IMG/VR virus record: IMGVR_UViG_3300022555_003222
Location: 32,001 to 96,000 of that record
Source of the DNA: a virus
Strand: one strand, 5' to 3'
Length of the DNA: 64,000 bases
Below the pieces are notes generated by a model. The model was not told the DNA's origin and made no database searches. It saw nothing but the letters and a program-made list of their open reading frames with translations. Numbering within the stretch: position 1 is the stretch's first letter; every line of letters begins with the position of its first letter. Both the position numbers and the translations under genes were made by a program. Of the stretch, positions 11,403 to 64,000 are shown in pieces.

Positions 11403-11410
11403 ATCATTAT

Positions 11411-11439
11411 ATAGTAACATATATGCAAATATTTTGCAA
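11411..11439 (-). promoter_or_regulatory. sigma70-like promoter for the homing endonuclease
   Basis: minus strand TTGCAA-17 nt-TACTAT with TG extension, just upstream of ATG 11402. Confidence 0.4.
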
Positions 11440-11446
11440 CTTGCCA

Positions 11447-50151: not shown

Positions 50152-50219
50152 TTTCTCATCTTACTTCTCCTGTAAAAAGGTGTGTCCTTATTGTAGTACA
50201 GAAGTAAGAAGATGTAAAG

Positions 50220-51269
50220 CTATCGGCTCAATTTTTCTTTGCCAAACATCCCAGCAGATATTTTTTGTAAATCTCTCATTTTTTCACCATCAGGAGCTAA
50301 CATCGTATTTTCTCCCGGCTGCCCTTGGCGATCTACCTTGTCGGTTACAATTGCCTCTAAATCATTGTCATATCCTATGTTAAACCCTACCACTCTACCC
50401 CGATGCCAATATCTACCACTTTGAGATTGAACCATGTCTCCAATGCCAATCTTTGCTGGATTGTGCCGTGGATCAGTAATCATTATCATGATTTGACGTT
50501 GACGTTCACTTTCTCTTTGACGACGAGCCTCGTCTTCTGCCCGTTGAGCGGCTGCCTGTTCGGCCGATTGTCTCTGCCTTCGTGCTACCTCTTCCGGTGA
50601 AGATGCAATTCGTCTGCGTTCGTCTTCGGCTGCCCTCGCAGCTAGTCTTTCCTGCTGCTCTTTAGCCCAATGTGTTTGGAAGGCTATTGAAATGCTGGTA
50701 AACAAATCGTTTTTCCTCTCTCCAGCATCAATCGCAGGTAACCCTTGTGGTACATACTTTTTATCATACGACTCTCTGCTTATCCACCACGTTGGATAGT
50801 CTGGATTCGCTGGATCACAAGGAACGTAATGATCAGGGAACATATTCTTCTTCATCCATAAAGCATAAACCTTCTTGCGAGCATCTTTGTTTCTATCTGT
50901 GTTCTGTTTTATTGTGGGAGCCCAAGATAATTGCTTTGGCTTGTGCTGACTAATGTAATCGCTCAAAGCATACACAACGCCATTGCCTACCTGCTTTTCT
51001 ACATTCGCTCCAGTAGCTTGATAAGCATCATATGATTTGTAATTTGGCTTAAATGCTACACTTACCGTATCACCCTGGTTTTGAAACGACACTTGATAAC
51101 AACGCCCACCAGTAGAATCCTTAGAAGCATCACACGCAGGATCTTCAGGTATGTTAAAATAGAAATACTTGTATGGACCACCATCTACCCATTGACCATC
51201 TTGCGGTGGAGTACCAGTTGAAAACAATTCATTTAATTCTTGTTGCTCTAAATATTCCCGAAAATTCAT
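50220..51269 (-). CDS. hypothetical protein with MNFREYLE N-terminus
   Basis: ~350 aa, charged coiled-coil linker, SH3-like C-terminus. Confidence 0.6.
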   Translation of the reverse strand: MNFREYLEQQELNELFSTGTPPQDGQWVDGGPYKYFYFNIPEDPACDASKDSTGGRCYQVSFQNQGDTVSVAFKPNYKSYDAYQATGANVEKQVGNGVVYALSDYISQHKPKQLSWAPTIKQNTDRNKDARKKVYALWMKKNMFPDHYVPCDPANPDYPTWWISRESYDKKYVPQGLPAIDAGERKNDLFTSISIAFQTHWAKEQQERLAARAAEDERRRIASSPEEVARRQRQSAEQAAAQRAEDEARRQRESERQRQIMIMITDPRHNPAKIGIGDMVQSQSGRYWHRGRVVGFNIGYDNDLEAIVTDKVDRQGQPGENTMLAPDGEKMRDLQKISAGMFGKEKLSR

Positions 51270-51329
51270 AATGACCATCCCCGAATTTTCATATCCCGGT
51301 TTTTATTCTATAGAAGTCCTAAATGAAAT

Positions 51330-51358
51330 AGACCCACCCGGCGAAGCCGGGTGGGTCT
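51330..51358. terminator. hairpin/terminator with GCGAAGC loop
   Basis: agacccacccggc-gaa-gccgggtgggtct. Confidence 0.7.
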
Positions 51359-51399
51359 TATCAATCTGCTTAAAGGGATATAACCTATCCCCCTACGCA

Positions 51400-51987
51400 C
51401 TACTTGCCCTTGCCCAAATCTCCTAACGACTTCTTCAACCCCGCTATCGCCGCCTCGTTACTCTCAAATCGCTTGATCCAATAACGACCGCCCTCTTCTA
51501 TCTCCTTCATGTGAATCTTAAAAGCACCATCGCCCTCTTGAATCTTGTCATCCATATTGTTCAAAGTCATCCGTAAAGCCACTAACCTCTGCCGATTCAC
51601 CTCCATCTCCTGCTTCAATGACTCCCGATCCTCATCTATCCCTTTCTGAATAATCAGCATTTGCAAATCCATCTTCTTTTGAACAGTTAATAACTCTAAC
51701 TCCAGTTTTAACTCTTTACGAAGAATCTCTATTGTCTTTTGCTGATTATCACAGATCTGTTTTAATATATCTTCGTTTAGTTTATTTTGTAATGTTTTAA
51801 GCTCTGAACTACGCTCTACACATATCTGAGCCTCCTGCTCTTGATTTAATTGCATTTGATCAATTCTATGGCTTAATTTGGATATACGGACACCATCTAT
51901 GATCGACATCGTAAGAAAACCAACCATTAACCCAATAATGAGTGTGATTTGCCACCAATGAACCCTCATAATACGTATTTGTTCCAT
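51400..51987 (-). CDS. single-TM coiled-coil protein
   Basis: N-terminal hydrophobic helix then long heptad repeat; GGGAG RBS. Confidence 0.6.
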   Translation of the reverse strand: MEQIRIMRVHWWQITLIIGLMVGFLTMSIIDGVRISKLSHRIDQMQLNQEQEAQICVERSSELKTLQNKLNEDILKQICDNQQKTIEILRKELKLELELLTVQKKMDLQMLIIQKGIDEDRESLKQEMEVNRQRLVALRMTLNNMDDKIQEGDGAFKIHMKEIEEGGRYWIKRFESNEAAIAGLKKSLGDLGKGK

Positions 51988-51995
51988 AACTCCCC

Positions 51996-52160
51996 CTATT
52001 TGCTGGCCACAACCTTGATCTCTCGACTGTTCCTCTTGGCCCACTCTATCGTAGCCTCCATCATCGTAGTTTCCTCTGGCATCTCCTGCCAAACCACCTC
52101 TACAGCATCATAGTTCTCCGATGCCAATGTAATTATATCAAAAATTGTCATCTCTTCCAT
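51996..52160 (-). CDS. small acidic protein (54 aa; not in ORF track)
   Basis: MEEMTIFDIITLASENY...; AAGGAG RBS. Confidence 0.5.
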   Translation of the reverse strand: MEEMTIFDIITLASENYDAVEVVWQEMPEETTMMEATIEWAKRNSREIKVVASK

Positions 52161-52176
52161 AGGGTCTCCTTATTTG

Positions 52177-52635
52177 TTAAAATGGTGACGATGGAGCCTG
52201 TTGCTTCACCAATACTCTTTTTTCTTTTAGATACTGAGCAAGCTTAATCACATGCTTGCATACCCCGCCTCTGGCTTTCGCTCTAATAAATTGAATACAA
52301 GTACAACTTGGTTCCACATCCGTATCACGATAACCCAATCTTTCAAAATGATATTCTTTGCCGTCCGGTCCCTGGAGATGATAATCATTAGGTGACCACA
52401 TGCCAGTCATATAGGAGATGTTGCGAAACAAAAGTTTCGTGACATACATGTCTCCCTGACTACCTCGAATACGACCAGTAAACAATAAGGTCTTCGCCTG
52501 GGGATCAGGACGAGTTACTACATTGTCAACCTCTATGTTCCCAATCCTATTCAGAATGTCCGCTTGATTCTGCTGCGTCTTTTGAAAAAATCCAGCTAAA
52601 TCAGTTTCAGAAAGTAACCACTGCTTGAAATTCAT
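52177..52635 (-). CDS. SWIM zinc-finger protein
   Basis: CTC..F.......CKH; MNFKQWLLSE N-terminus. Confidence 0.7.
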   Translation of the reverse strand: MNFKQWLLSETDLAGFFQKTQQNQADILNRIGNIEVDNVVTRPDPQAKTLLFTGRIRGSQGDMYVTKLLFRNISYMTGMWSPNDYHLQGPDGKEYHFERLGYRDTDVEPSCTCIQFIRAKARGGVCKHVIKLAQYLKEKRVLVKQQAPSSPF

Positions 52636-52687
52636 TTTTACCCCTCTTCAGGTTCATGTTATTATCTATGAATCGATATATAATTCC

Positions 52688-53209
52688 ATGAAAACTTTTA
52701 CACAATGGATAGAAGCAATTTCGGCTCCCAACATGAGTAATTACGATGATATCAGAATTACCAAATCTGAAAAGCCTGTTTTGGATAAAGTGAAAGCCGT
52801 GCTCTCTCATTTGAATACCGTCAAGTACGAAATCCTTGGTCACGGCATCCGAAGTGTAGCAGATCTACCAGCAATATACAAAAATGGATTATTGTTTCCA
52901 GTAGGAAGAGCAGAAAATCCAGTACCACATATAGATGGGTTTATGGGAACTACACGAACAATATTTGAGGCTGGAATTCCAATTGAAGAACAAGCAGATA
53001 AACACTTCGATGGATTACTCCAATGGAGCTACGCACATAGAAAACAAATCCTGCTCATCCAAGCCCCACCAAACGATCCACTTTCCATTATTGTAAACAA
53101 TCCCCAAGAACGAACGGCAACGCATTGGAGATGGTCGCCCTATATCATTGATCCTAAATCAATGCTGGGCTATTTTGATGCTGAACAAATTAAATTCTTT
53201 CCCAAATGA
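52688..53209 (+). CDS. hypothetical protein, possible ADP-ribosyltransferase-like fold
   Basis: MKTFTQWIE start; GHG....L..IYKNGL resembles the ART HGT..I...GL strand. Confidence 0.5.
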   Translation: MKTFTQWIEAISAPNMSNYDDIRITKSEKPVLDKVKAVLSHLNTVKYEILGHGIRSVADLPAIYKNGLLFPVGRAENPVPHIDGFMGTTRTIFEAGIPIEEQADKHFDGLLQWSYAHRKQILLIQAPPNDPLSIIVNNPQERTATHWRWSPYIIDPKSMLGYFDAEQIKFFPK

Positions 53210-53241
53210 AAAACCCACTCCCGCAAAGCGGGAGTGGGTTT
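53209..53241. terminator. bidirectional terminator
   Basis: aaacccactcccgc-aaa-gcgggagtgggttt between convergent genes. Confidence 0.85.
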
Positions 53242-53250
53242 ATTAAACAA

Positions 53251-53445
53251 TTACTCTTCGTCTATCTGCTTGGCCGCATTTCTGCTGTTCTCAGGTGTGT
53301 TCTTCTTGTAAGGTGGCTTCTTGCTGTCCCTGTATCTTGGATTCCCACCCACATAACCACTCTTTCCATGATTCTGATCATTAACGTGCTTCCCTTGATA
53401 AGAATCCCGATCCTTGCCCTCCATCCACTGTGTAAATGTAATCAT
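53251..53445 (-). CDS. small protein with MITFTQWME N-terminus
   Basis: 64 aa; AAGGAGG RBS. Confidence 0.6.
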   Translation of the reverse strand: MITFTQWMEGKDRDSYQGKHVNDQNHGKSGYVGGNPRYRDSKKPPYKKNTPENSRNAAKQIDEE

Positions 53446-53484
53446 GTTGCCTCCTTAACTATATATAATTAGAAGGAGAACAAA

Positions 53485-53829
53485 ATGAATATACTATGCG
53501 TGATGACAATACTGATTACCTTAGGTGCTGACCCCGCTCCCGCCTACAAAGGCACCCTCAATCAACAAATACAACAAGCCTACCGAGATCAAGGTGGCCC
53601 AGCTAGATTGCCAGCCACCAATGTCCAATTGCCCACATTTAATAACGTAGGCTACGCTCCCGTAATTGTAGTGTTGCCAGAAGGTGTCAATATGGGAGCT
53701 TCTGTATCCGTTTCAGCAGATAGAAGATATATAAGATTCAGTACAGCACCCACCATCATGTTCTCCACAATTCCACAATGGAGTACGTACAATATACAAA
53801 CAGGACAAACTATTACTCATAGACGATGA
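53485..53829 (+). CDS. secreted protein with planctomycete-type VSADRRY motif
   Basis: signal peptide; VGYAPVIVVLPEG...VSADRRYIRF; AAGGAG RBS. Confidence 0.55.
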   Translation: MNILCVMTILITLGADPAPAYKGTLNQQIQQAYRDQGGPARLPATNVQLPTFNNVGYAPVIVVLPEGVNMGASVSVSADRRYIRFSTAPTIMFSTIPQWSTYNIQTGQTITHRR

Positions 53830-54212
53830 AGTATGGATATGCCAGAAAAATCTAGAATCGTATCAGAGCCAGGAGCCATTGTCACATTACATACTTTGAT
53901 AGTACCACCCTCTCCATTCTTTCTTGTTAATTTCCAATCTTCTTCTAAAGCTAAAAGCAAATCTTGTGGCATTTTCTTTTCTAGGTAAATACTGCCAAAC
54001 CAAAAACTGTACCGATCTCCTCTATACGATAACACCTCTGCTTGACAACTCACTTCTTTTTCTTGAACCGTTAATGTCACAGGCTCTAAATCCGAAGATA
54101 ATGTTTGCAACATCGTCCGTACCAAGGGAACCAAATCCGCCCCTCTCTTGTCAGATATGCCTTTCCACTTCAGAAAAAGCTTGTCGTCCATCGCTATGTT
54201 TAATTGCTTCAT
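53817..54212 (-). CDS. hypothetical protein, possible N-terminal ribbon-helix-helix
   Basis: MKQLNIAMDDKLF..WK...KRG..L..LVR. Confidence 0.5.
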   Translation of the reverse strand: MKQLNIAMDDKLFLKWKGISDKRGADLVPLVRTMLQTLSSDLEPVTLTVQEKEVSCQAEVLSYRGDRYSFWFGSIYLEKKMPQDLLLALEEDWKLTRKNGEGGTIKVCNVTMAPGSDTILDFSGISILHRL

Positions 54213-54233
54213 TGGTTATTCCTTTCTAAAAAT

Positions 54234-54262
54234 AAACCCACCCGCCATCGGCGGGTGGGTTT
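54234..54262 (-). terminator. intrinsic terminator
   Basis: aaacccacccgcc-atc-ggcgggtgggttt. Confidence 0.8.
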
Positions 54263-54267
54263 CTCAA

Positions 54268-54531
54268 TTATTGCTTGAACATGGCTAGCCTTGGGGCAAA
54301 ACCCATCGCCTCCATCTTCTCGCCATGACCTAAAGCCACAGCCTGCTTTAATCCAGCATCGCCAAGCTGTTGCAATACCTGTAACATCGCCTGCTCAATG
54401 CCTATCACGCCGTCGTAACCCATGTTAGGATAGTTTACCGTCGAATTGAAAAAGTCAACCGCTGACCCATCCGTCGTAACTTCCTTGACATCCAGTACAA
54501 CGCTCACACTAAATCTCTGATTCTTATCCAT
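54268..54531 (-). CDS. hypothetical protein
   Basis: 87 aa; AAGGAG RBS. Confidence 0.6.
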   Translation of the reverse strand: MDKNQRFSVSVVLDVKEVTTDGSAVDFFNSTVNYPNMGYDGVIGIEQAMLQVLQQLGDAGLKQAVALGHGEKMEAMGFAPRLAMFKQ

Positions 54532-54813
54532 AACATCTCCTTAATAAGAAGGTCTAGAGATTATATAAGCACTAGAGAAAATATTTTATACTCAATAAGT
54601 TGCACATCAATAAACCCCTTATAAGAAAGGAGTAGGAGTCCCTAGAAGTTTTTTAGCCTTTTAGCCCCCAAACAAAAGTTCCCCTATTTCAAATTTTGAA
54701 ACATCCTTTGAAAAGAAAGAACCGCCGTACTAGCTTACCCAGCCGGTGGGTGGGGAACCAAAAATAAAAACTTTTTCAAAAAATTTTTTCTATTCTTTTT
54801 TTTGTAACACGGT

Positions 54814-54896
54814 TGAGTGCAGATGTATAGGGGGCCAGAAGGCCGACAGGCACAGCCCACGGCTACGCCGTGGGCTGTGCTATACATCTGCACTCA
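54814..54896. repeat. 17-bp perfect inverted pair of the array motif flanking a 14-bp-stem hairpin
   Basis: tgagtgcagatgtatag (54814-54830) / ctatacatctgcactca (54880-54896); gcacagcccacggc-tac-gccgtgggctgtgc between them. Confidence 0.9.
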
Positions 54897-55005
54897 GTAT
54901 GCTAGCGTGTGGTGTACTCCTGTACTGCACAGTGTACTAGCGTATGGTGTACGCCTACACAGTATAGCATACATGGTGTATGCTATACTGTAGTGTACGC
55001 ATGGG

Positions 55006-55269
55006 CTACATGCAGTCGTAGCCATAGTCGTGCCCGAACGATGGGCAGGCCACTGGTGGCCGTGGCCGCTCGGCCTCGGGCCGCACACACTTCATCAGTG
55101 TGTGGGTCGAACAGCCAGTAGCAAGCCGTGTCGCATGGTCGGCCTCGACCTCGACGAACAGATACCGATAGCCCTCGTCTATCAGGCCCATCAGTACGTC
55201 CATCCAGTTGGCCGGGGTGCAGGGGTAGGCCATGTCGTCGCCGCAACGGGAAGCAGATCGGATGTGCAT
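55006..55269 (-). CDS. array hypothetical protein
   Basis: downstream of motif 55313; AAGGA RBS. Confidence 0.55.
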   Translation of the reverse strand: MHIRSASRCGDDMAYPCTPANWMDVLMGLIDEGYRYLFVEVEADHATRLATGCSTHTLMKCVRPEAERPRPPVACPSFGHDYGYDCM

Positions 55270-55391
55270 TGTCGTGTCCTTGTGTTGGTTGTGTTGTCTC
55301 GTTACACCACCAGTTATACATCTGCACTAAGCAGGTGTTTCTCGTCGGGGCAAGAGCCACCGGCCAGAGGCCGGTGGCTCATTCGTTAGCC

Positions 55392-55646
55392 CTATCGCTT
55401 GGGCATCCGTACACCATTCATGGCTCTGGTCAGCATGGACTGGATACGCTCCAGACTCCAGCCCGTGTGCCGTAGGCTGTCGGTGTATCGGTTCAGTTCA
55501 GGCCAATGGCCGGTGCTGAACATCTGCCGCATCGTCGCCACTTCCTCGCCCTCGACGATCTCGTTATCCATCAGTCGCTCGTCCATGCTGGCCGTGGCCG
55601 TTCGGCTCTCGTCACCCGCTTGCTGTCCTTGGTATCTTGCTCGCAT
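55392..55646 (-). CDS. array hypothetical protein
   Basis: downstream of motif 55687. Confidence 0.6.
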   Translation of the reverse strand: MRARYQGQQAGDESRTATASMDERLMDNEIVEGEEVATMRQMFSTGHWPELNRYTDSLRHTGWSLERIQSMLTRAMNGVRMPKR

Positions 55647-55739
55647 GATCGTGTCCCTTGTGGTGGTTGTTCTCGTTACACCGGCAGTTATACACCTGCA
55701 CTAAGCAGGTGTTTCTCGTCGTAGTCCGGGCTGCATAAC

Positions 55740-56012
55740 CTACTCGTTCCAGCCGTTATAGTCCTCGTCCATGCCATGACCGGCAGACGACATGCCGCTG
55801 TCGAAGTCGCCGTCCATGCTCTCGTCGCAGTCGTCGAAGTCCTCGTCGTCGTCGTCCTCGTCATAGTCGTCGAAGTCGTCCATGTCCTCGTTGTCCTCCG
55901 GGCCGTACATCTGCTCGTACCGCTGGCTGGCCTGCTCCTCAAGCCAGACTTCGCAGCAGCAGCAGTCCTCGCCGCCGCAACCGTTGCAACGTGGTGAACC
56001 GTGGTAAGGCAT
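55740..56012 (-). CDS. extremely acidic small protein with Cys cluster
   Basis: MPYHGSPRCNGC..CCCC then Asp/Glu tract; GGAG RBS; motif 56055. Confidence 0.65.
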   Translation of the reverse strand: MPYHGSPRCNGCGGEDCCCCEVWLEEQASQRYEQMYGPEDNEDMDDFDDYDEDDDDEDFDDCDESMDGDFDSGMSSAGHGMDEDYNGWNE

Positions 56013-56117
56013 GATAGTCTCCGTTAGTGGTTGTGATTGGTGGTCGTGCCAACAGTTATACAACTGCACTTGCTGCAATAAAAAGACAGCACCGGCCTGG
56101 GCCGGTGCATAGGTTTC

Positions 56118-56222
56118 TTAACCTAACAGACGACGACTGAACCGAACCGCCCTCGAATGTGCATAGTAGGCACGTTTCGCAGGGTCAGAACTGAAACGAC
56201 GCTTCCTCGTTCCATCCGGCAT
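56118..56222 (-). CDS. small basic protein (34 aa; not in ORF track)
   Basis: AAGGAGG then MPDGTRKRRFSSDPAKRAYYAHSRAVRFSRRLLG; motif 56283; hairpin 56089-56108 after the stop. Confidence 0.55.
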   Translation of the reverse strand: MPDGTRKRRFSSDPAKRAYYAHSRAVRFSRRLLG

Positions 56223-56276
56223 GGTCATTCCTCCTTGGACAAACTAAGGGGCAGTCGGCGGAAGTCGCTGACTGCC

Positions 56277-56449
56277 CCCTCAGTTATACAACTGCACTCG
56301 ACACTTAAAACTTCATGTTAGCCTCCATAGGTATAGACCCTCAGCCTTGCACCCTCAGTTATACATCTGCACTCACATTCAAACCTTCATAGTTGCCTCC
56401 ATCGGTGTAGAGTGTTAGCCTTGTGCCCTCAGTTATACAACTGCACTCT
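56277..56449 (-). repeat. tandem ~75-bp promoter-RBS-minigene units
   Basis: ccctcagttataca.ctgcactc at 75/74-bp spacing; GGAGG-5 nt-ATG AAG GTT TGA and ATG AAG TTT TAA. Confidence 0.8.
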
Positions 56450-56559
56450 CCCTTAGTGCGATCATAGTTGCTAGTGCATAGACTGATAGCTAGATCACCT
56501 AGACTACTAGACTGCGTAAAGCCCTACCCTGCTTCGCAGGGTAGGGCCGACCGGCCTAA

Positions 56560-56847
56560 TCAGGCCGCTTGTTTGACCTTGTGGACCTTGGCCTTGGGCA
56601 CGGTGACCCGGACGATGGGCCGACCGGGGAACTTGGTATGGGCCACGGCCTCGGCATGGGCCACCTTCTCGTACTTACGGGGCAGCAAGATGACGACGCC
56701 GTTGCCGGTCGTGTTTCTCGCACCGATGCTGTAACGTCGCCCGTCACTGACGATAGCCAGGGCATAGACGCCGTTCAGGACGGCACGCCACGCTTGCTTA
56801 CGGACGTTGTGAATGGCATTGGTCTGGATGTAGGGGGTGCTGGTCAT
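56560..56847 (-). CDS. array basic protein ending -QAA
   Basis: motif 56893; hairpin 56521-56547 downstream. Confidence 0.65.
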   Translation of the reverse strand: MTSTPYIQTNAIHNVRKQAWRAVLNGVYALAIVSDGRRYSIGARNTTGNGVVILLPRKYEKVAHAEAVAHTKFPGRPIVRVTVPKAKVHKVKQAA

Positions 56848-56906
56848 GGTTTCGATTCCTTTGGGTTATGATTGGTTCTTGTTACACTGTTGGTTATACA
56901 CCTGGA

Positions 56907-57089
56907 CTAAGGTAGACTTCTCACGAATTCATACCCAACGTCGTTGATGACCAGGGTATAGCTGGGGTTGTCGTCGTGCTTGAACCACACTTCCCACTTG
57001 CCGGTGTCGATGTTTTCGACAATGGCTTCGTCGTTGTGGATACTGACTAGACGATAGCCAGCTTGTTCCAATGTTTCTCGTAATGGCAT
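56907..57089 (-). CDS. array hypothetical protein
   Basis: motif 57112, GGAG RBS; stop overlaps next motif. Confidence 0.65.
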   Translation of the reverse strand: MPLRETLEQAGYRLVSIHNDEAIVENIDTGKWEVWFKHDDNPSYTLVINDVGYEFVRSLP

Positions 57090-57174
57090 GGTTGGTTCTC
57101 CTGTGCCCTCAGTTATACATCTGGACTTGGGAGGAAAGACCTTCCCCTGCGAAGCAGGGGAAGGTCTATAGGTA

Positions 57175-57498
57175 TCAGACTCGGGCAGGTAGGCCCAGTT
57201 CGATCAGGGCTTCGGCATCCCAATTCTCGGGCATCTCGTTCTCGCACCGATAGGCATAGTCTTGGGCTGCTTCGTCGTTATCGTCGTAATAGCAAGCCAC
57301 TTCGACATACGTTCCAAAGTCGTGGCTATTGCTCTTGATCTTCAATTGGGCCAAATCTGGCTCGGGGCCGAACTCACGCCGTAACTGGTTGATGAAGGCC
57401 CGGCACTCGGCCCTGGCCCGCTGGGGGTCATAGCTCGGTCCAAGCTGTTCGCAGTCCTCGGCTGCCGGGGTGCAACTCAGTTCCATGTAATCTCGCAT
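57175..57498 (-). CDS. array hypothetical protein
   Basis: motif 57543; GGAG RBS; HDFGTY motif. Confidence 0.65.
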   Translation of the reverse strand: MRDYMELSCTPAAEDCEQLGPSYDPQRARAECRAFINQLRREFGPEPDLAQLKIKSNSHDFGTYVEVACYYDDNDEAAQDYAYRCENEMPENWDAEALIELGLPARV

Positions 57499-57605
57499 GA
57501 TCGTTCTCCGTTGTGGTTGGGTGTTGTCTCGTTACACTAGCACTTATACACCTGAACTGAAGATATATCCTGGTCTAGCATATATCCTCTGGCATGTATC
57601 CTGGT

Positions 57606-57788
57606 CTAGCAAGCTCCCATGATAAGCACTTCTTCGGCACCGTATACCTTATTGGCACCGCAAGCCTCGCACTCATAGCCACGGGCATCGGGTTCCACGC
57701 CTTGGGCTTCGGCACCGCAAGCCAAGCAAAAACCTACGTTATCATCGCTCTCGACCGCTTCCATCACACGCTCGATATTCAGTTTCAT
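57606..57788 (-). CDS. zinc-ribbon protein
   Basis: GFCLACG...YECEACG. Confidence 0.65.
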   Translation of the reverse strand: MKLNIERVMEAVESDDNVGFCLACGAEAQGVEPDARGYECEACGANKVYGAEEVLIMGAC

Positions 57789-57919
57789 TGTTTCGTTCCT
57801 TGTGGTTAATGACAAAGAGGACGCAGCTTGTACTTCGCTGCTTCACAACAAGGAAGATTGGGAGGGCTTGCCTCTTACTCTATTGTTGTGTCCTTGATGC
57901 TATTGGTTATACAACCGGA

Positions 57920-58174
57920 CTAAGCCGCTTTTGCAAGCTGGGGCTTAGGCTGTCGCTGATGGTTCTTCAGCAGTATCGCTCGTATAGCTTGCTGCTCCAA
58001 GACGATATGCTTCAGGACGCTCTCGACTCGGCCTGTTGCTACGGAAGTTCGCAGCAATTCTTTCAACTCGGCCAAGGTCACGATCTCGTTGTCGTACTGA
58101 CGGGCTGCCAGTTCATCATCGCTATCGAACAGTTTGCCATCCGATGCTTTGATCTTAGATATACGCTGAATCAT
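57920..58174 (-). CDS. array hypothetical protein ending -KAA
   Basis: AAGGAG RBS; stop overlaps motif 57906. Confidence 0.65.
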   Translation of the reverse strand: MIQRISKIKASDGKLFDSDDELAARQYDNEIVTLAELKELLRTSVATGRVESVLKHIVLEQQAIRAILLKNHQRQPKPQLAKAA

Positions 58175-58176
58175 CT

Positions 58177-58335
58177 TTACTCCTTATGGGTCATTGCCTT
58201 AGCTGTTTGCTCGGCATCGGTCTTACTATTGGTAAAGTAATCGGCTTCTGGCATACGCTTACCATTAGCATCGTATGCTCTGACAATATATTCACCATCG
58301 TGCTTCTTGATGGTGGTACTCGTTATGTTTGTCAT
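58177..58335 (-). CDS. array small protein (52 aa; not in ORF track)
   Basis: MTNITSTTIKKHDGEYIVRAY...; 22 nt after motif 58358. Confidence 0.6.
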   Translation of the reverse strand: MTNITSTTIKKHDGEYIVRAYDANGKRMPEADYFTNSKTDAEQTAKAMTHKE

Positions 58336-58371
58336 GGTTGGTTTCCTTGTGCCGGTAGTTATACACCTGCA

Positions 58372-58617
58372 CTAGAACGGTATTTCATCGGTGTTCGGTT
58401 TGGTCGGCTTGCCCGGAACGTCGTGTTCTAGGGACAGTTCCAGATCAGCCGTATCGTTTACATCTTCGGGATGGGGTACAGCAGGGCCGTTATAAAACGG
58501 GTTCCGTTCCCATGTATCGTAATCCGTCAGAATCCAGGCTCGATCAGGATGATCGGCTCCAACATTGGCCGCATACTCACGGCAGGCATCAGCAGGGGTA
58601 GCAAGTTGATCGTACAT
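58372..58617 (-). CDS. array protein ending in SSB-tail-like DEIPF
   Basis: motif 58640; GGAG RBS. Confidence 0.65.
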   Translation of the reverse strand: MYDQLATPADACREYAANVGADHPDRAWILTDYDTWERNPFYNGPAVPHPEDVNDTADLELSLEHDVPGKPTKPNTDEIPF

Positions 58618-58640
58618 GATTGGTTCTCCTATGCCACTAC

Positions 58641-58769
58641 TTATACACCTGCACTTGCCGTCTTTTTCCCAAGTCGTCGTGTGCTTTTGTTGGCAACACG
58701 CTTGCCATAGGGCTTCAAGTGCTTGGCATAGCTTCGTGCCTTCGTGCTGGTTTCGGGGTGCTTACGCAT
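58641..58769 (-). CDS. small Lys/Arg-rich protein reading through the motif
   Basis: MRKHPETSTKARSYAKHLKPYGKR...SAGV; the last four codons and stop are the motif. Confidence 0.5.
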   Translation of the reverse strand: MRKHPETSTKARSYAKHLKPYGKRVANKSTRRLGKKTASAGV

Positions 58770-58782
58770 TGGTTTACTCGCT

Positions 58783-59019
58783 CTAGTGCTGGTCGTATTG
58801 GGACACACAAGCAGGACAATGGTAATAAGTGCCATATCCTGCCCACCCAACGGGGAAATGGGTGCCGATAGGAATGTTCATGGCATCAGGTAAGTCGTCA
58901 ACTTGCAGATGCTCGACTTCGATCTTGATGTTCTCAGTTCGTCCTCGGCATTTACACTTCGCACAAACGATGGGCAAGTTGACGATCATCGTTGCTTTCC
59001 GAATCATAATGTCTTTCAT
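58783..59019 (-). CDS. zinc-finger-like protein
   Basis: CAKC...GW....HCPAC; degenerate motif at 59041. Confidence 0.6.
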   Translation of the reverse strand: MKDIMIRKATMIVNLPIVCAKCKCRGRTENIKIEVEHLQVDDLPDAMNIPIGTHFPVGWAGYGTYYHCPACVSQYDQH

Positions 59020-59063
59020 CGTGGTTCTCCTGTGCCATTACCTATACATCGGGACCAAGCACA

Positions 59064-59315
59064 TTAGCCCTGAATACGCTTTGTATAGTTCTTGATCGGT
59101 TCGGCCAAGGCATCGGCAAGGTCGCTGACATGAATCAACACTTCCTCATATCCCGCACTATGCCCATGCTCCCAAGCATTGTAAGCTATGGCCGAATGAA
59201 ACTCTTTAGGAAGATCGGCCAGCAGTTCAGTCTGCTTGGCCTCGAACTGCTCTTGGGTTAGTCGGGCCGGTGGTGTTGGTGTTGGCCGATCACTAAAAGG
59301 ATAAATTTTATTCAT
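59064..59315 (-). CDS. array hypothetical protein
   Basis: AWEHGHSAGYEEV; start uncertain, first ATG abuts motif 59316. Confidence 0.6.
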   Translation of the reverse strand: MNKIYPFSDRPTPTPPARLTQEQFEAKQTELLADLPKEFHSAIAYNAWEHGHSAGYEEVLIHVSDLADALAEPIKNYTKRIQG

Positions 59316-59374
59316 CTTATACAACTGGACTTGAGAGAATAAGCGTCAGGCCGGTTCCCGGCCTGACGCAATAA

Positions 59375-59542
59375 TTATTTGTTCACCTTGCATAAGCAAG
59401 GCGGGCCTTTGTTCTTTATTTCAATAGGGCCGTTTACTTCGTTAGTGCTAGATGGGCAGTCGTCGCTGCCCTCGTTGCTGGTCTGTTGACTTGGCTCGGC
59501 CACCGTCAACATCACCAGTATCATGCCTAGTAGTCCGATCAT
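59375..59542 (-). CDS. small putative exported protein (55 aa; not in ORF track)
   Basis: MIGLLGMILVMLTVAE...; ATGA overlap with upstream stop; GAGG RBS. Confidence 0.5.
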   Translation of the reverse strand: MIGLLGMILVMLTVAEPSQQTSNEGSDDCPSSTNEVNGPIEIKNKGPPCLCKVNK

Positions 59543-59772
59543 AGTTCCTCGGGGGCCTTGGCCAGCCGCTCCTCGTATTGGTCTAGGTCGAAGGGTTGCA
59601 TAATCAGGGCAATCGCACCGCCATCACTACGTTCCAATTTGATTGCGCTGACTGTTTGATACTCGATGCCGGGGATGCACACGCACAGGACCGTTTCATC
59701 ACCCAAAGAACTGGTTGCTGCAATCTCTCGCAGTTGCTTCATGGCCTCGCTGACCGTAAGTTCGTTGCTCAT
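59539..59772 (-). CDS. array hypothetical protein
   Basis: ATGA-coupled to upstream gene. Confidence 0.6.
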   Translation of the reverse strand: MSNELTVSEAMKQLREIAATSSLGDETVLCVCIPGIEYQTVSAIKLERSDGGAIALIMQPFDLDQYEERLAKAPEEL

Positions 59773-59897
59773 TTCGTGGTTGCCTTTCGTTTGATTTTAC
59801 GGCTGAACTGCATACCACAGTGACGACATCTTAGCCACTTTAACAGGCCAAGAACGCCAAGTAACATTAGTTCGCCACCGCATAGTTTACATTGCAT
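59769..59897 (-). CDS. small zinc-finger protein (42 aa)
   Basis: MQCKLCGG...RCRHCG; 22 nt after motif 59920. Confidence 0.6.
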   Translation of the reverse strand: MQCKLCGGELMLLGVLGLLKWLRCRHCGMQFSRKIKRKATTK

Positions 59898-59937
59898 GGT
59901 TGGTTTCCTTCTGCTGTTGGTTATACAACTGGACTCA

Positions 59938-60192
59938 CTAGCCATTCCAGGCCGCAGTCTCATTCAGCACGACTGACTTGCTGTAGGGCTTGTGCCCTAT
60001 CATTCGCAAGTCGCTGCCTACGTTGCAGCCATAGTCGTATAACAGACGTTTAGCCACTTCCAAACCGCCACGGTGGGCTACACACGCACCGTTGACATAG
60101 ATAATCCAGGGCAAGACCGAATCCCAATCAGGTTGATAGGTTGCTCGACCGTTGCCACACTTGGTTCGATAGGTTTCACCGATCTGGGGCAT
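59938..60192 (-). CDS. array hypothetical protein
   Basis: 21 nt after motif 60214. Confidence 0.6.
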   Translation of the reverse strand: MPQIGETYRTKCGNGRATYQPDWDSVLPWIIYVNGACVAHRGGLEVAKRLLYDYGCNVGSDLRMIGHKPYSKSVVLNETAAWNG

Positions 60193-60272
60193 TGTGGTTT
60201 CCTTCTGCCATTGGTTATACAACCGGACTGCTGCGAATTAGCCCCACCCTGCTTCGCAGGGTGGGGCATGTA

Positions 60273-60773
60273 TCACCTTAGCCAAAGGTCGTCGGCCCAG
60301 GCATATTCTTCTGCTTCGTCGCCATCGACCACAAATGCCTTCTTCGGGGCATCGTGCCAAATGGGGTCAAACCCTTCCGGCAAGGCCGCAGCACCAACAT
60401 AAAGCATTTTCGGTGGCTCCACAAAATACTTCAACAGGGCAGGGCATAGCCAGCCAGCCATTGGCTTGTCGGCAACCATGCCGCCGTACCAGTTGCCGAT
60501 CAGCACACTATGCTCTTTGCCATCCTTGGACTTGAAGGACAGATTGCCCTCTTGTAGCCAATGCAAAGTAACATCAGCACCATCGAATGGCTCGGCCCCG
60601 AACGTCATGGTGAAGCCCTTGTCGGTATCCGGCAAGGCTTTCGTTTCGATGATCTTGTCGATCATTTCACTCATGCCACAGACGAACGCTTCGGCCTTCA
60701 ACTCGGTTGTCGGGTCGTCAAACACCCAACACTTGCTATTGGGTTCCTTGTAAGGAAATAGTTTCATATTCAT
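60273..60773 (-). CDS. array hypothetical protein (WVFDD...WLCPAL family)
   Basis: motif 60818; GAGG RBS. Confidence 0.65.
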   Translation of the reverse strand: MNMKLFPYKEPNSKCWVFDDPTTELKAEAFVCGMSEMIDKIIETKALPDTDKGFTMTFGAEPFDGADVTLHWLQEGNLSFKSKDGKEHSVLIGNWYGGMVADKPMAGWLCPALLKYFVEPPKMLYVGAAALPEGFDPIWHDAPKKAFVVDGDEAEEYAWADDLWLR

Positions 60774-60841
60774 GTTTGGTTATCCTCATGTTGATTGTCC
60801 TTTGTTGGACGTTGTTGGTTATACAACTGCACCAGATTGCT

Positions 60842-61174
60842 TTAGGTCACAATCTCATGCACCAGTACGTTGGGCATATCAAAGGTCGTCCAGCCCTTTT
60901 CTTCGACCAGCCAATCAAGAAACTGGCTGTCGCTGTCTGGATGCTCGACCGCTTCCTGCCACTCGGCCCACAATTCATCAAGGGCATCAGCAACGTGCAT
61001 CGGCTCGTTGCTGCCCTTCGTTCTCACCCCTCGGTAGGTGTCATCAGCCTGATAAACAGGGATGCCATTGACCTTCGGTGGTTCGACTGTACCAAGGGTA
61101 TAAGTCTCTTGGTCGCTGCCACTGTCTTGTCGGACATTGATCGTGACAGGACGTTGAATGTTTCGCTTACTCAT
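60842..61174 (-). CDS. array hypothetical protein
   Basis: 22 nt after motif 61197. Confidence 0.65.
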   Translation of the reverse strand: MSKRNIQRPVTINVRQDSGSDQETYTLGTVEPPKVNGIPVYQADDTYRGVRTKGSNEPMHVADALDELWAEWQEAVEHPDSDSQFLDWLVEEKGWTTFDMPNVLVHEIVT

Positions 61175-61272
61175 TTTGTGGTTCTCCATGCTTGCAGTTA
61201 TACAACTGCACTTAAAACATTTAGCGAAAAGACTGCCACGGCGAAGCCGTGGCAGTCCACCCTTCCCACAAC

Positions 61273-61929
61273 TTAGGCCGCAATCGCTTCGGCCTTTGTT
61301 TCCGCATAGGGGGCCAACTCGTTGACGATGTAGACCTCGCCACCGGCTCGGACTTCGACAACGTGATCCGTTCGGTACTCCTTGTAAAAGAAGTCCACCG
61401 GGTCGCTATCGCTAACCCGCTTCGGCTTGACCCACGGGGCAAGGTCAGTCTTGCTGACTTCGTTGCCCTGCTCGTCGAAGTAGGACGTTTCGACGATGGT
61501 TTTCGCTGGCCCTTCCTTCTGCATACGCATTTCCAGATACAGTTGCCCCTTGTGTCGGATGAGGGGGGTGTTCTGGATACGCTCGCCCCACTTACGGGGT
61601 TGCAGATCGTGCTTGATCGGCCCAGCCGTTTCCAAGGCCAGGGCAGCCGCTTCATCACCAGTGGCACGGGCCGCTTCGATGGCCGCACCCCAATGACGGG
61701 CATTTTCGTTGTCTCGGCTCCGAACGTAGCTGAAACAGGTCATGGCCCGCTTGACCAAGGCCCGCTTCTGAATGTTCTGGAACGGGCACTTGACACCGGC
61801 CTTCCGGTCGCCACCTGCATTAACGTACAGGTCGGCATCGGTCAGGGCAACGATGCCCAGGGTTTCGACCGTGGCAACCCGCAACAGGATGCCTTCAAGT
61901 TCGTTCTGGCTGACATAGTGGATGGTCAT
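61273..61929 (-). CDS. array hypothetical protein ending -IAA
   Basis: 218 aa; motif 61972. Confidence 0.7.
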   Translation of the reverse strand: MTIHYVSQNELEGILLRVATVETLGIVALTDADLYVNAGGDRKAGVKCPFQNIQKRALVKRAMTCFSYVRSRDNENARHWGAAIEAARATGDEAAALALETAGPIKHDLQPRKWGERIQNTPLIRHKGQLYLEMRMQKEGPAKTIVETSYFDEQGNEVSKTDLAPWVKPKRVSDSDPVDFFYKEYRTDHVVEVRAGGEVYIVNELAPYAETKAEAIAA

Positions 61930-61994
61930 GGTTTCGTTCCTTGTGGTTGGGTTGTTTCGTTGACGCTGCTAGTTATACACCTGGACTCGACTGC

Positions 61995-62072
61995 TTACTC
62001 GGTTGCCAACACTAGCAGACCTAACATGGTTACAATTACGGTATACAATTCGATAATGTTGACCGCTTCCAC
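61995..62072 (-). CDS. 25-aa single-helix membrane peptide (not in ORF track)
   Basis: AAGGGG-7 nt-GTG; MEAVNIIELYTVIVTMLGLLVLATE. Confidence 0.4.
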   Translation of the reverse strand: MEAVNIIELYTVIVTMLGLLVLATE

Positions 62073-62085
62073 TGATACACCCCTT

Positions 62086-62388
62086 CTAGGCCACGAATAC
62101 GTGGCCTCCAATATGGTCCCCCGAATGGGGTTGTGCTGCCTTGGCCGCTTCGATGACTTCGGTGGGTACAACTATCTCAGTTGCCCCCAGCATCGGCATC
62201 AGGTCGATGTTGCAAGCATAATTAGCTTTGTGCTTGCTAATCATGCCCTTGCCGGTCACCTTGTCGAACCGACAAATCCGATGGTCAGATTGAATCTGGA
62301 AGAATGAACCGTCGCCCATATCAGGGTATACGGTCCACTCGACCGCTGAACGCATATTGCCTAGACGAGCTACAATTGAAAATCTCAT
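62086..62388 (-). CDS. array hypothetical protein
   Basis: motif 62427. Confidence 0.65.
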   Translation of the reverse strand: MRFSIVARLGNMRSAVEWTVYPDMGDGSFFQIQSDHRICRFDKVTGKGMISKHKANYACNIDLMPMLGATEIVVPTEVIEAAKAAQPHSGDHIGGHVFVA

Positions 62389-62489
62389 GGTTTCATTCCT
62401 TGTGATTGGTTATCGTTACGCTCCTTGTTATACATCTGGACTAGAGAAGATAGCCCCACCCTGCTTCGCAGGGTGGGGCTTGTATAGAA

Positions 62490-62858
62490 CTAGGCCGGGT
62501 GTCTCCGGGCCTTGTAGTTGGCCGGTGGCTTGTACGCTTGGACGTAGACCTGGAACTGACCGGATTCGACGATGGCATAGCCATAGCCCTTGTCCAAGTC
62601 ATGGGTCAACTTCATCTTGAACCGCTGCACACTCAGGGCCGGTTCATCATCGGCTCCGAAACCGCTGGAATCGACCATGAAGGCATCGCCCACCGCCGTC
62701 CACCCTTGGGGTGCATAGTCACCCATAAAAGGCATCGGGAATGGGGGCATACGATCAATCTCGGCTTGATCGTATGGGACATAAGGGACACGCCGCTGAC
62801 CAGCAGCACGACGGGTGGCACGATCACTGGCAGACCGGATAGCTTCCAAAGACATCAT
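62490..62858 (-). CDS. array hypothetical protein
   Basis: motif 62904; VDSSGFG..DEPAL, GQFQVY motifs. Confidence 0.65.
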   Translation of the reverse strand: MMSLEAIRSASDRATRRAAGQRRVPYVPYDQAEIDRMPPFPMPFMGDYAPQGWTAVGDAFMVDSSGFGADDEPALSVQRFKMKLTHDLDKGYGYAIVESGQFQVYVQAYKPPANYKARRHPA

Positions 62859-62931
62859 AACTAGGGTTCCTTGTGGTTGGGATAGTAACTGCGAACGGAG
62901 CCAGTTATACAACTGGACTTACCCGATATAT

Positions 62932-63216
62932 TTAGGCCGCACGGGCAAGGGTAGCCACTGATCGACTAGCCTCGAACGAAATGCCGCCCATACGCCGCTG
63001 GTAAGTAGGGATATATCCCTTGACTTCCAGTTCGACCAGCATAGGTGTCAAACGATACAGATAGTCGTCGGCCTTGTCGTCGTGTTCCTTGGGCCATTCC
63101 ACTTCGGCAAGGTAACAATCGACTTTGCCATTCAGGGTAATCGTGGACGTTGCCACAACGACCGGCACACCCTGAACATCCATCACTTGCACACGCTCGG
63201 CAACATTGACTTGCAT
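62932..63216 (-). CDS. array hypothetical protein ending -RAA
   Basis: GAGG RBS before MQVNVAE. Confidence 0.6.
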   Translation of the reverse strand: MQVNVAERVQVMDVQGVPVVVATSTITLNGKVDCYLAEVEWPKEHDDKADDYLYRLTPMLVELEVKGYIPTYQRRMGGISFEASRSVATLARAA

Positions 63217-63302
63217 ATAGACCTCGTTGGTTGGAAAGTAAAAGCGTTGGCTCGCCCCGGCAGGGGTGAGCATTACACCCACCCCTGCCGGTTTGATTCG
63301 TA

Positions 63303-63656
63303 TTAGGCCGCTTTCGCAGCCTTGTATTGGGCCAGAACTTCGGCCTTACGGCTGGCCTTGTTCTTGACAGCCTCAACCGCTGCCCCATATTGGGCCAGCA
63401 CTTCCAGGTCTGTGCCCTGGTAGCCGTAGCACGACCGGCTGTTCTTCACGAACCGATTCGCTTGCACCAAAATGGTGGCATCGGCTCCTACGACGTTGAA
63501 CAAGGCACGATATGCCTTCGCCAGTTCCCGCTGGGCAACCAAGGCCGCACAACGTCGCTGATACGCTTCGACGTTGGCCTGGGCCTTGGCAATCTGTGCC
63601 GGGGTCTTGGCCTTCTTCGCCTTCTCCGACACAACCTTCACTCCACCCTTCGCCAT
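63303..63656 (-). CDS. Ala/Lys-rich basic protein ending -KAA
   Basis: motif 63696; AAGGAG RBS. Confidence 0.65.
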   Translation of the reverse strand: MAKGGVKVVSEKAKKAKTPAQIAKAQANVEAYQRRCAALVAQRELAKAYRALFNVVGADATILVQANRFVKNSRSCYGYQGTDLEVLAQYGAAVEAVKNKASRKAEVLAQYKAAKAA

Positions 63657-63709
63657 GTTCATTCTCCTTGATGATGTTGACTGTTGTTGATTGAAGTTAT
63701 ACACCTGGA

Positions 63710-63904
63710 CTAAGCTGCTTTTGCAAGGGCCAAAGCAACTTTATTGTCGAACCCGCAGGCCGTATAAAATCGGCTTCGGTCGAATCGGGGGTTGTCATAG
63801 CAAGCCACGATCATGTCGTAGCAAGCCTGGGCTTGAACACGCTGGCCGCAGTTGACCAACTCACGGATATGCCGTGCAAACTCGACAAAGTATTTCTTAC
63901 TCAT
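63710..63904 (-). CDS. array protein (NPRFD..RF..AC motif) ending -KAA
   Basis: 22 nt after motif 63927; stop overlaps motif 63696. Confidence 0.65.
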   Translation of the reverse strand: MSKKYFVEFARHIRELVNCGQRVQAQACYDMIVACYDNPRFDRSRFYTACGFDNKVALALAKAA

Positions 63905-63940
63905 GGTTGATTTCCTTTCACTTGCAGTTATACACCGGCA

Positions 63941-64000
63941 CTATGCCGCTTTAACTGCCGATGGTTGCCCGTATCGCAGCCAGTTGGCCGCTTCGTCACG
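63941..64000 (-). CDS. 3' end of an array gene (truncated by the window) ending -KAA
   Basis: ...RDEAANWLRYGQPSAVKAA-TAG, stop overlapping motif 63927. Confidence 0.5.
   Translation of the reverse strand, partial: RDEAANWLRYGQPSAVKAA

Follow-up and report, generated by a model that had tools for sequence, protein, structure and literature searches.

What is the function of a 16-nucleotide (nt) word that stands, copy after copy, in front of the small genes of a huge phage? The question is raised by a stretch of 64,000 nt, hereafter called the window, which comprises bases 32,001–96,000 of the 130,808-bp IMG/VR record IMGVR_UViG_3300022555_003222 (CheckV completeness of about 26% of the genome). 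From position 54,814 to the end of the window, the minus strand carries an array of small-gene units, each headed by this motif. The 16-mer is probably the core of a lineage-private, single-element promoter lacking a −35 element, which would head about 66 ORFan units.

The sequence AGTSCAGDTGTATAAS had 17 exact matches in the window, every one on the minus strand, and none in any of 100 shuffled versions. With up to two mismatches allowed, 24 matches were found (23 on the minus strand and one, at 54816, on the plus strand) against 0.31 expected. A 25th, degenerate copy with three mismatches lies at 59042–59057, 21 nt 5′ of an ATG. An earlier note on this DNA had described such a repeated 16-bp motif, running on beyond the window, and had listed a copy at 59041, which is the degenerate one. 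In the whole record, 61 copies were present at one mismatch or fewer (60 reverse and 1 forward; a reversed-pattern control gave 0 and 0) and 67 at two or fewer, 66 of them on the gene strand. The array does continue past the window: all copies are confined to a 33-kb block at record positions 86,816–119,787, with none in the other 97 kb. According to a crude map, this block contains about 100 small minus-strand genes, about 30 of them in the window part; the earlier count of about 28 genes is approximate.

The G+C content rises from about 0.40–0.44 to 0.50–0.60 at window 54.8 kb, and the composition profile thus bears out the step that had been noticed there. Over the whole block it was 0.45–0.54 vs. 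about 0.40 on both flanks, returning to about 0.40 past record position 120 kb. The block is therefore a GC-rich island within one molecule and not an assembly end. The suspicion of a chimeric assembly at 54.8 kb was refuted: a contig from a different study (run X3) spans 53996–55354 without any difference. A contig of run X10 also spans the GC boundary (54635–55340).

An alignment of the 66 minus-strand copies, which underlies all motif column statistics, yielded the consensus AGT-S-C-N-G-N-TGTATAAC, in which 13 of the 16 positions are invariant or nearly so and positions 4, 6, and 8 vary. TGTATA is invariant (66/66), and the last motif base (position −7) is C in 57 copies and T in just two. 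The −35 zone, between −40 and −14 from the motif start, held 0.1 bit per column or less, in agreement with the claim that nothing is conserved there. Upstream of the motif, a weak A/T enrichment was seen at −10 to −8, together with a T at −2 that is largely due to upstream stop codons. Downstream, the pattern W, A, n, n, R, G is followed by a pyrimidine (Y) at +7 in 60 of the 66 copies and by a purine (R) at +8 in 62; the pyrimidine/purine step is typical of start sites of multisubunit RNA polymerases (RNAPs). A scan for canonical sigma-70 promoters gave 10 sites vs. 7.8 ± 2.8 expected, none of which coincided with a motif. No Rfam family matched positions 50000–64000 at E ≤ 0.1, and the record contained no antisense match to the shared leader of the kind that an antisense small RNA would give. 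Among the literature matches listed for TGTATAA, for GTGTATAAC, and for sigma factors and promoters of huge phages, none presents this word as a promoter.

A start codon preceded by a ribosome-binding site (RBS) could be called for 50 of the 66 copies: 28 at 16–26 nt from the motif (mode 21–23), 20 at 33–54 nt, and 2 further away. The two motif-to-ATG distance classes reported before hold among these measurable copies. The upstream open reading frame (ORF) stops on the motif in 37 of the 66 cases, by t+AG in 13, by tg+A in 10, by a TAA reaching to the first A in 3, and by the internal TAA in 11. The sharing of a TAG in five cases, as given in the earlier note, was confirmed but proved to be too narrow a description. 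The 11 ORFs that read through to the TAA of TGTATAA encode proteins ending in SPGV or SAGV.

Beyond the motif edges, the copies cease to resemble one another: over 2,145 pairs, the shared stretch had a median of 17 nt, and just 26 of these pairs shared 30 nt or more. This indicates that the word itself is under selection and is not a residue of recent duplications. The clustering of variants along the array was significant for position 4 only, with 40 of 65 neighbor pairs alike vs. 27.8 expected, a value reached by 3 of 5,000 shuffles.

The features of the array part of the window are given below by window position and strand.

54814–64000, minus strand: the array, window part; small-gene units, each headed by the 16-nt motif, with a G+C content of 0.50–0.60.
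54814–54896, minus strand: array-end hairpin, in which the last motif (54879–54894, minus) pairs with an inverted copy (54816–54831, plus).
55313–55328, minus strand: motif AGTGCAGATGTATAAC, 43 nt from the ATG of ORF 55006–55269.
55687–55702, minus strand: motif AGTGCAGGTGTATAAC, 40 nt from the ATG of 55392–55646; the upstream ORF ends at the motif TAA.
56055–56070, minus strand: motif AGTGCAGTTGTATAAC, preceded by a terminator-like hairpin (56089–56108).
56273–56448, minus strand: 74-nt tandem repeat, 2.4 copies, with motifs at 56283–56298, 56358–56373, and 56432–56447.
56893–56908, minus strand: motif AGTCCAGGTGTATAAC, its AG common to the TAG of the upstream gene; an edge of an X10 strain difference.
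57112–57127, minus strand: motif AGTCCAGATGTATAAC, 22 nt from the ATG, preceded by a hairpin (57137–57167); an edge of an X10 strain difference.
57543–57558, minus strand: motif AGTTCAGGTGTATAAG, one mismatch, 44 nt from the ATG of 57175–57498.
57906–57921, minus strand: motif AGTCCGGTTGTATAAC, one mismatch, its TAG common with gene 57920–58174; an X10 piece restarts at 57917.
58358–58373, minus strand: motif AGTGCAGGTGTATAAC, 22 nt from the ATG of 58177–58335; its TAG is common with 58372–58617.
58640–58655, minus strand: motif AGTGCAGGTGTATAAG, 22 nt from the ATG of 58372–58617.
59042–59057, minus strand: degenerate motif GGTCCCGATGTATAGG, three mismatches, 21 nt from the ATG of 58783–59019; X10 departs at 59048.
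59316–59331, minus strand: motif AGTCCAGTTGTATAAG, preceded by a terminator-like hairpin (59343–59369).
59920–59935, minus strand: motif AGTCCAGTTGTATAAC, 22 nt from the ATG of 59769–59897; left end of the 324-nt deletion in X10.
60214–60229, minus strand: motif AGTCCGGTTGTATAAC, one mismatch, 21 nt from the ATG of 59938–60192, preceded by a hairpin (60241–60267); missing in X10.
60273–60773, minus strand: gene for a 166-amino-acid (aa) protein with DUF6717, the sole one of 20 scanned array proteins above the Pfam cut-off.
60818–60833, minus strand: motif GGTGCAGTTGTATAAC, one mismatch, 44 nt from the ATG of the DUF6717 gene (60273–60773); missing in X10.
61197–61212, minus strand: motif AGTGCAGTTGTATAAC, 22 nt from the ATG of 60842–61174, preceded by a hairpin (61231–61257).
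61273–61929, minus strand: gene for a 218-aa protein, the largest array gene in the window; an ORFan with no Pfam match.
61972–61987, minus strand: motif AGTCCAGGTGTATAAC, 42 nt from the ATG of 61273–61929.
62427–62442, minus strand: motif AGTCCAGATGTATAAC, 38 nt from the ATG of 62086–62388, preceded by a terminator-like hairpin (62452–62480).
62904–62919, minus strand: motif AGTCCAGTTGTATAAC, 45 nt from the ATG of 62490–62858.
63696–63711, minus strand: motif AGTCCAGGTGTATAAC, its TAG common with 63710–63904; a 37-nt hairpin is inserted directly upstream (63711) in X10.
63927–63942, minus strand: motif AGTGCCGGTGTATAAC, one mismatch, 22 nt from the ATG of 63710–63904; its TAG is common with a gene starting outside the window.

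The 74-nt repeat is peculiar in that two of its motif copies lead to an RBS and a three-codon mini-ORF (M-K-V/F-stop), while the last copy is followed by a 5′-leader hairpin (56246–56280). Another set of tandem repeats, of 9, 15, and 21 nt, is located inside an array ORF at 55811–55891; this region varies between strains, loose contig ends being found at 55839 and 55872 in several runs. Nineteen of the 20 array proteins scanned against Pfam had nothing above the cut-off. The 218-aa protein had 7 homologues with 59–96% identity in 5.8 billion clusters, none of them named. The G+C content at third codon positions (GC3) of the array genes was 0.49, 0.54, and 0.62 in the successive thirds of the block, climbing toward its 3′ end (0.35–0.80 per gene), vs. 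0.33 in 14 large genes and 0.37 in small ORFs of the backbone. One possible source of this excess is an import of units from relatives that are richer in G+C.

Hairpins were searched for within 45 nt of each motif, with the threshold set at the 5% level of 600 control windows from the array. Strong hairpins were found upstream of 14 and downstream of 9 of the 66 copies (22 distinct copies), about 3 being expected for each side. They have perfect stems of 12–15 bp and 3-nt loops. The upstream ones are followed by T-rich tails and are terminator-like (62452–62480, 59343–59369, and 56089–56108), and the downstream ones sit in the 5′ leader; four of the latter form one family in which pairing is kept through a C–G to T–A change. 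Three motif copies are preceded by one and the same stem sequence, GCCCCACCCTGC gaa GCAGGGTGGGGC. Terminator-like hairpins with such stems and loops occur throughout the phage, e.g., in the upstream region at window 50.2 kb. With strong terminator-like hairpins directly before 14 of the 66 copies, a new transcription start is needed there.

The hairpin at the array end (54814–54896) is 83 nt long, with a free energy of −62.9 kcal/mol, a z-score of −10.6, and an inner 12-bp stem at 54852–54878. It is located exactly at the GC boundary, is followed by an A/T run, and could work as an insulator or as a terminator in both directions. Short repeats containing GTACAC, together with palindromes, are clustered at 54900–55010, just before the last motif copy.

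To which phage does the array belong, and where else does the motif occur? The phage is uncultured and comes from fresh water. The record encodes a major capsid protein of the T4 gp23 family (PHROG 138), portal protein, and large terminase; genes for a helicase and for tail and baseplate wedge proteins are present as well. Thousands of proteins are related to the capsid protein (precomputed Pfam domain PF07068); the best of them show 76–90% identity and come from contigs of up to 673,178 bp; the genomes of the closest relatives measure roughly 0.25–0.67 Mb. The 14 runs listed as containing the stretch are freshwater, lake, and sediment metagenomes from eight studies, with no RNA run among them. 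The phage GenBank collection held no close relative. No relatives were found in IMG/VR for the helicase, the 481-aa array neighbor, or the 218-aa array protein (the latter searched as an alignment), and the exact 16-mer had 10 single matches there, taken as chance. Outside the array, the window also contains a LAGLIDADG homing endonuclease with a C-terminal helix-turn-helix (10335–11474, minus strand), situated among structural genes, and a protein of the CCA-adding/poly(A) polymerase family, consisting of a PolyA_pol head and RNA-binding domains (32634–34196, plus strand).

A metagenome scan with one form of the 16-mer returned 115 stretches, nearly all of them single chance matches; the true relatives among them, recognized by tblastx or blastp to array genes, were contigs L024, L040, L052, L077, and L092. 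These five contigs carry 15 motif copies in which the invariant positions and the leader–RBS–ATG layout of the array are kept, standing before both homologous and non-homologous genes. The contigs sharing the motif had a G+C content of 51–61%. The motif precedes an ArdC-like anti-restriction gene in L052 and L077, an ArdC-like gene is also present in L092, and L052 additionally encodes primase/helicase-like and RuvB-like proteins; this content fits a pre-late class of genes.

The order of units differs among these phages. In L024, the left flank of record position 103.7 kb is joined to the gene behind the 109.66-kb motif: homologues of two neighboring genes (record 103.9 kb) are followed by a motif and the homologue of that gene, and then by the homologue of the 103.1-kb gene, this second junction not being at a motif. 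Four genes and two motifs are missing from L040 between two homologous genes. In L052 and L092, homologues of genes 8 to 21 kb apart in the studied phage are adjacent.

Differences between strains were analyzed by aligning the Logan contigs of four runs to positions 52000–64000. Run X10 contained a strain roughly 90–95% identical to the reference. In this strain, 201 other letters replace 204 nt between 56909 and 57114, segments of 324 nt (59935 to 60260) and 400 nt (60789 to 61190) are deleted, 55 nt with a motif and a hairpin (62426 to 62480) are duplicated, and a 37-nt hairpin is inserted at 63711; in addition, the X10 pieces have breaks within two motif copies, at 57917 and 59048. Only the four X10 joints with long sides (113–255 nt) were counted: five of their eight ends are no more than 7 nt away from a motif edge, a distance that applies to about 8% of the stretch, and the other three fall in the adjoining hairpin or leader. 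Eleven of the 15 joints, with sides of 22–58 nt, were left out, since promoter-plus-leader copies from other parts of the genome can align at these places; the loose end found at 59895, for instance, continues into the gene that follows the motif at window 67715. The pattern is that units appear or disappear, are duplicated, and change place from relative to relative, the junctions lying on the motif or next to it.

We propose the following mechanism. A bacterial-type multisubunit RNAP, probably the host core enzyme, would be directed to the single element, with TGTATAAC acting as the melting or −10-like part and AGTSCAG as an upstream extension read by a specificity factor. Initiation would take place at a purine some 5–8 nt downstream of the motif, giving leaders of about 15–18 nt (short class) or 28–50 nt (long class) with a strong Shine–Dalgarno sequence. 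The specificity factor would most likely be a phage-encoded or phage-modified sigma, encoded outside the available 130 kb. About one-third of the copies are joined with an upstream terminator hairpin or a stable 5′-leader hairpin, as T4-type promoter-stem-loop modules are. Since every unit carries the same signal, units would stay expressible wherever they land.

We favor the promoter reading because it explains the strand bias, the fixed start-codon geometry, the melting-type 3′ half, and the distance to the pyrimidine/purine step, as well as the starts behind terminators and the maintenance of the motif before unrelated genes across phages. From sequence, we infer early or pre-late timing for the expression of the array. 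The earlier note had proposed a dedicated early promoter class; the anatomy of the motif (co-orientation, geometry, TATAAC, pyrimidine/purine step, and no −35) agrees with this, and the factor that reads it was not found in the available 130 kb.

Do known systems offer a precedent? Promoter-stem-loop elements (PeSLs) are known from the T4-type phages RB49/phi1, T4/PST, and KVP40/nt-1 (PMC2839356; PMC4122927). A PeSL carries a full Escherichia coli sigma-70 consensus with a −35, a −10, and an AT-rich upstream region (PMC2839356). Mini-circles arising by exchange between neighboring elements are a further feature of PeSLs. The array resembles PeSLs in having tens of copies in hyperplastic regions directly before ORFans, in the order of stop codon, promoter, Shine–Dalgarno sequence, and ATG with stem-loops before or after the promoter, and in the indels or replacements between close relatives that are bounded by the elements (here X10, L024, L040, L052, and L092). 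It differs from them in that the motif has no −35, its −10-like hexamer ends in C, and a further 8–10 positions upstream are invariant. A stable stem-loop is part of each PeSL; strong hairpins accompany 22 of the 66 array copies, above the 5% control rate though not regularly. The array is also denser (66 copies in 33 kb vs. about 50 per 170-kb genome), and the G+C content of its block far exceeds that of the remaining phage sequence. Because PeSLs carry the full sigma-70 consensus, which is absent at the motifs, the array motif does not strictly qualify as a PeSL, although the layout and the hyperplastic location do match.

A closer counterpart in form is the promoter class of the phiEco32 sigma gp36, which lacks region 4. 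This class is middle/late and consists of six promoters with the single element tAATGTAtA, a start 6–8 bp downstream, and no −35 (PMC8948821, PMC12276001). Both classes thus have one conserved element near −10 and no −35, and the published start distance falls here on conserved purine positions. They differ in the upstream half (AGTSCAGn here vs. tAA in phiEco32) and in number (an array of 66 vs. six), and the podovirus phiEco32 is unrelated to a megaphage with a T4-type capsid. As no gp36 homologue was found in the record (about a quarter of the genome) or in the complete relative G001, the likeness appears to be one of form and not of membership.

T4 late promoters (TATAAATA) are −10-only elements read by the minimal phage sigma gp55 on the host core. 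The array motif would likewise be a −10-only element, and the clade encodes gp55-like proteins; however, the motif is absent from the structural genes, which makes its class distinct from the likely late promoters. The structural genes are preceded by loose TATATA(A/G)-like words, and the strict late word TATAGATA occurs in the record just 4 times.

All five large relatives tested (L248–L252, G001–G005) encode a sigma-region-2 protein of about 180 aa, which we take to resemble T4 gp55. Its gene is preceded by TATATAGATA in three of them (L248, L249, and L251), and this may be the late promoter word of the clade. With gp55-like sigmas and no beta/beta′ or T7-like polymerase domain, the clade appears to use the host core with phage sigmas, in the manner of T4. 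In the relative G001, small genes are headed by another repeat, AGTTTCCGAACCT-N14-GGTCTTCC, which is present 36 times on the plus strand and leads in each case to a leader, an RBS, and the gene. The copies range over C1:95,000–390,000 (loci L225–L240), with about 20 copies within 17 kb (213–230 kb). G001 also encodes, at 90.7 kb and 5 kb before the first repeat copy, a sigma of 322 aa that has both region 2 and region 4. The repeat presumably resembles the −35/−10 pairs of the extracytoplasmic function (ECF) type, and it forms with this sigma a candidate sigma–promoter pair. The presence of a different repeat before the small genes of G001 indicates that lineage-private promoter words occur in the clade and differ between lineages.

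Several results weigh against a lineage-private promoter that also bounds exchangeable units. A TG adjoining TATAAC (not TGnTATAAT) together with a C at −7 fits no characterized sigma, and the letters held in common with the phiEco32 class are only the six of TGTATA. No sigma (PF04542) was found in the record, and no homologue of gp36 in the record or the complete G001 (tblastn and phmmer; nothing below E 0.1). Profiles of beta/beta′ subunits (PF00623 and PF00562) had no matches in the record, the complete G001, or three partial relatives, with positive controls in 14 of 14 genomes; very divergent subunits of the phiKZ type could escape Pfam. The T7-like polymerase (PF00940) had no matches in the record or relatives in a search without a positive control, and tyrosine recombinase/integrase (PF00589) had none in the record, its control being positive in 14 of 14 genomes. 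The search for a sigma, RNAP, or recombinase suggested earlier was thus performed, and none was found in the record; these blanks are weak because the record covers only about a quarter of the genome. The single Sigma70_r4 match in the record was rejected as a sigma, being the helix-turn-helix of a LAGLIDADG endonuclease.

To the same side belongs the absence of the motif from 10 IMG/VR relatives with 77–80% identical capsid proteins, including the complete 532,729-bp genome G001. In 37 of the 66 cases the upstream gene ends on the motif without a terminator, so many units would also have to be transcribed from upstream. As for the exchange of units, the replacement of 204 by 201 nt in X10 could be a fast-diverged orthologue, and breakpoints at a conserved intergenic word are expected when whole genes are swapped, the motif not being proven as a crossover substrate. 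The cassette idea of the earlier note therefore stands as regards the reordered units in relatives and the X10 indels at motif edges; the motif may either cause the crossovers or just survive them.

Other explanations have been considered beside the promoter reading. One of them, tentative and with the balance against it, extends that reading: the motif would be the word of an undescribed lineage-private factor, sigma-like or an RNAP modifier and possibly DNA-delivered, and would double as an adaptor moving anti-host units between phages. Just as tentatively, sister lineages would have swapped factor and word together, G001 having a bipartite GAAC/GTC-type word and its own sigma. If true, an adaptor word passing between phages of differing G+C content would explain the GC3 of 0.49–0.62 in the array vs. 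0.33 in the backbone and the high G+C content of the related contigs.

Strong early promoters of T4 or T5 are of the extended −10 type and need no −35. It is conceivable, though unlikely, that the motif is an ordinary early promoter of this type, used by the host primary sigma alone, with AGTSCAG kept by gene conversion or spacer preference. TATAAC has the key A at −11, an invariant TG just upstream, and the pyrimidine/purine step at a normal distance; moreover, the clade shows no polymerase of its own, and T4-type PeSLs are, in the available part of their description, host sigma-70 promoters (PMC2839356). Yet the primary sigma binds T at −7 in a pocket, as stated in the part of the source at hand (PMC7598289), whereas C prevails and T is rare at this position of the motif. 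The TG is one base too near for a TGn element, and seven more upstream positions are invariant in the 66 copies and the five contigs, beyond the requirement of the host sigma. An ordinary promoter would also have to be reconciled with 67 of 67 copies lying inside the array and none in the remainder of the record. Judged by its letters, with no −35, a TG that abuts the hexamer, C as the last base, and seven fixed upstream bases, the motif does not appear to be a standard primary-sigma promoter.

A promoter of a phage-encoded RNAP, either single-subunit or phiKZ-like multisubunit and perhaps packaged in the virion, working independently of the host enzyme, is improbable. Long invariant promoters are typical of phage polymerases. 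The jumbo phages with their own RNAP have, in the available part of the published account, a conserved AT-rich motif of about 10 nt near −10 (PMC7598289), and the array motif is similarly a computable conserved motif centered near −10 before presumed early operons. Their element of about 10 nt is, in contrast, AT-rich and is used by a virion multisubunit RNAP, for which no genes were detected here or in the relatives searched. Neither PF00623 and PF00562 nor PF00940, the latter without a positive control, had matches in the record or these relatives, and the gp55-like sigma carried by five of the five relatives tested works with the host core.

Even less probable is an RNA-level site, i.e., one for endoribonuclease cleavage or protein binding that divides polycistronic transcripts into units. 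In 37 of the 66 cases, an upstream gene that ends on the motif with no intervening terminator does place the motif within the transcript, and the distance from motif to RBS is fixed; but 14 of the 66 copies stand directly behind terminator-like hairpins, several of them T-tailed, where a new start is required, the 3′ half looks like a DNA-melting element, and neither an Rfam match in 50000–64000 nor a nuclease candidate was identified.

Integron cassettes are mostly promoterless, and their attC sites are imperfect palindromes. That the motif serves primarily for site-specific recombination in a cassette platform like that of integrons, with expression from elsewhere, is scarcely credible: the array does recall an integron in having small and mostly unknown genes on one strand, a repeat between them, and a content and order that vary with junctions at the repeat, but the record contains no integrase (PF00589), the motif is no attC-like palindrome and looks like a promoter, hairpins accompany one-third of the copies and have perfect stems, the second junction of L024 lies away from a motif, and the fixed RBS/ATG geometry is left unexplained.

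The lineage-private promoter thus remains the reading that we prefer, and the array is a variation on known kinds, namely phage-specific promoters and PeSL-like modules, and not a new category. Sequence alone yields here a high-information, probable promoter word that marks about 100 genes and provides a handle for annotating the pre-late genes of the clade. Huge phages are known almost solely from metagenomes, and their transcription is largely obscure; G001, with another word and its own sigma, offers a comparison case, and which factor reads which word is a testable pairing problem. If orthogonal to host promoters, the word and its factor would make a compact promoter–factor pair for engineering. 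Promoter-bounded units exchanged between phages would extend the PeSL idea past sigma-70 promoters and past the cultured relatives of T4.

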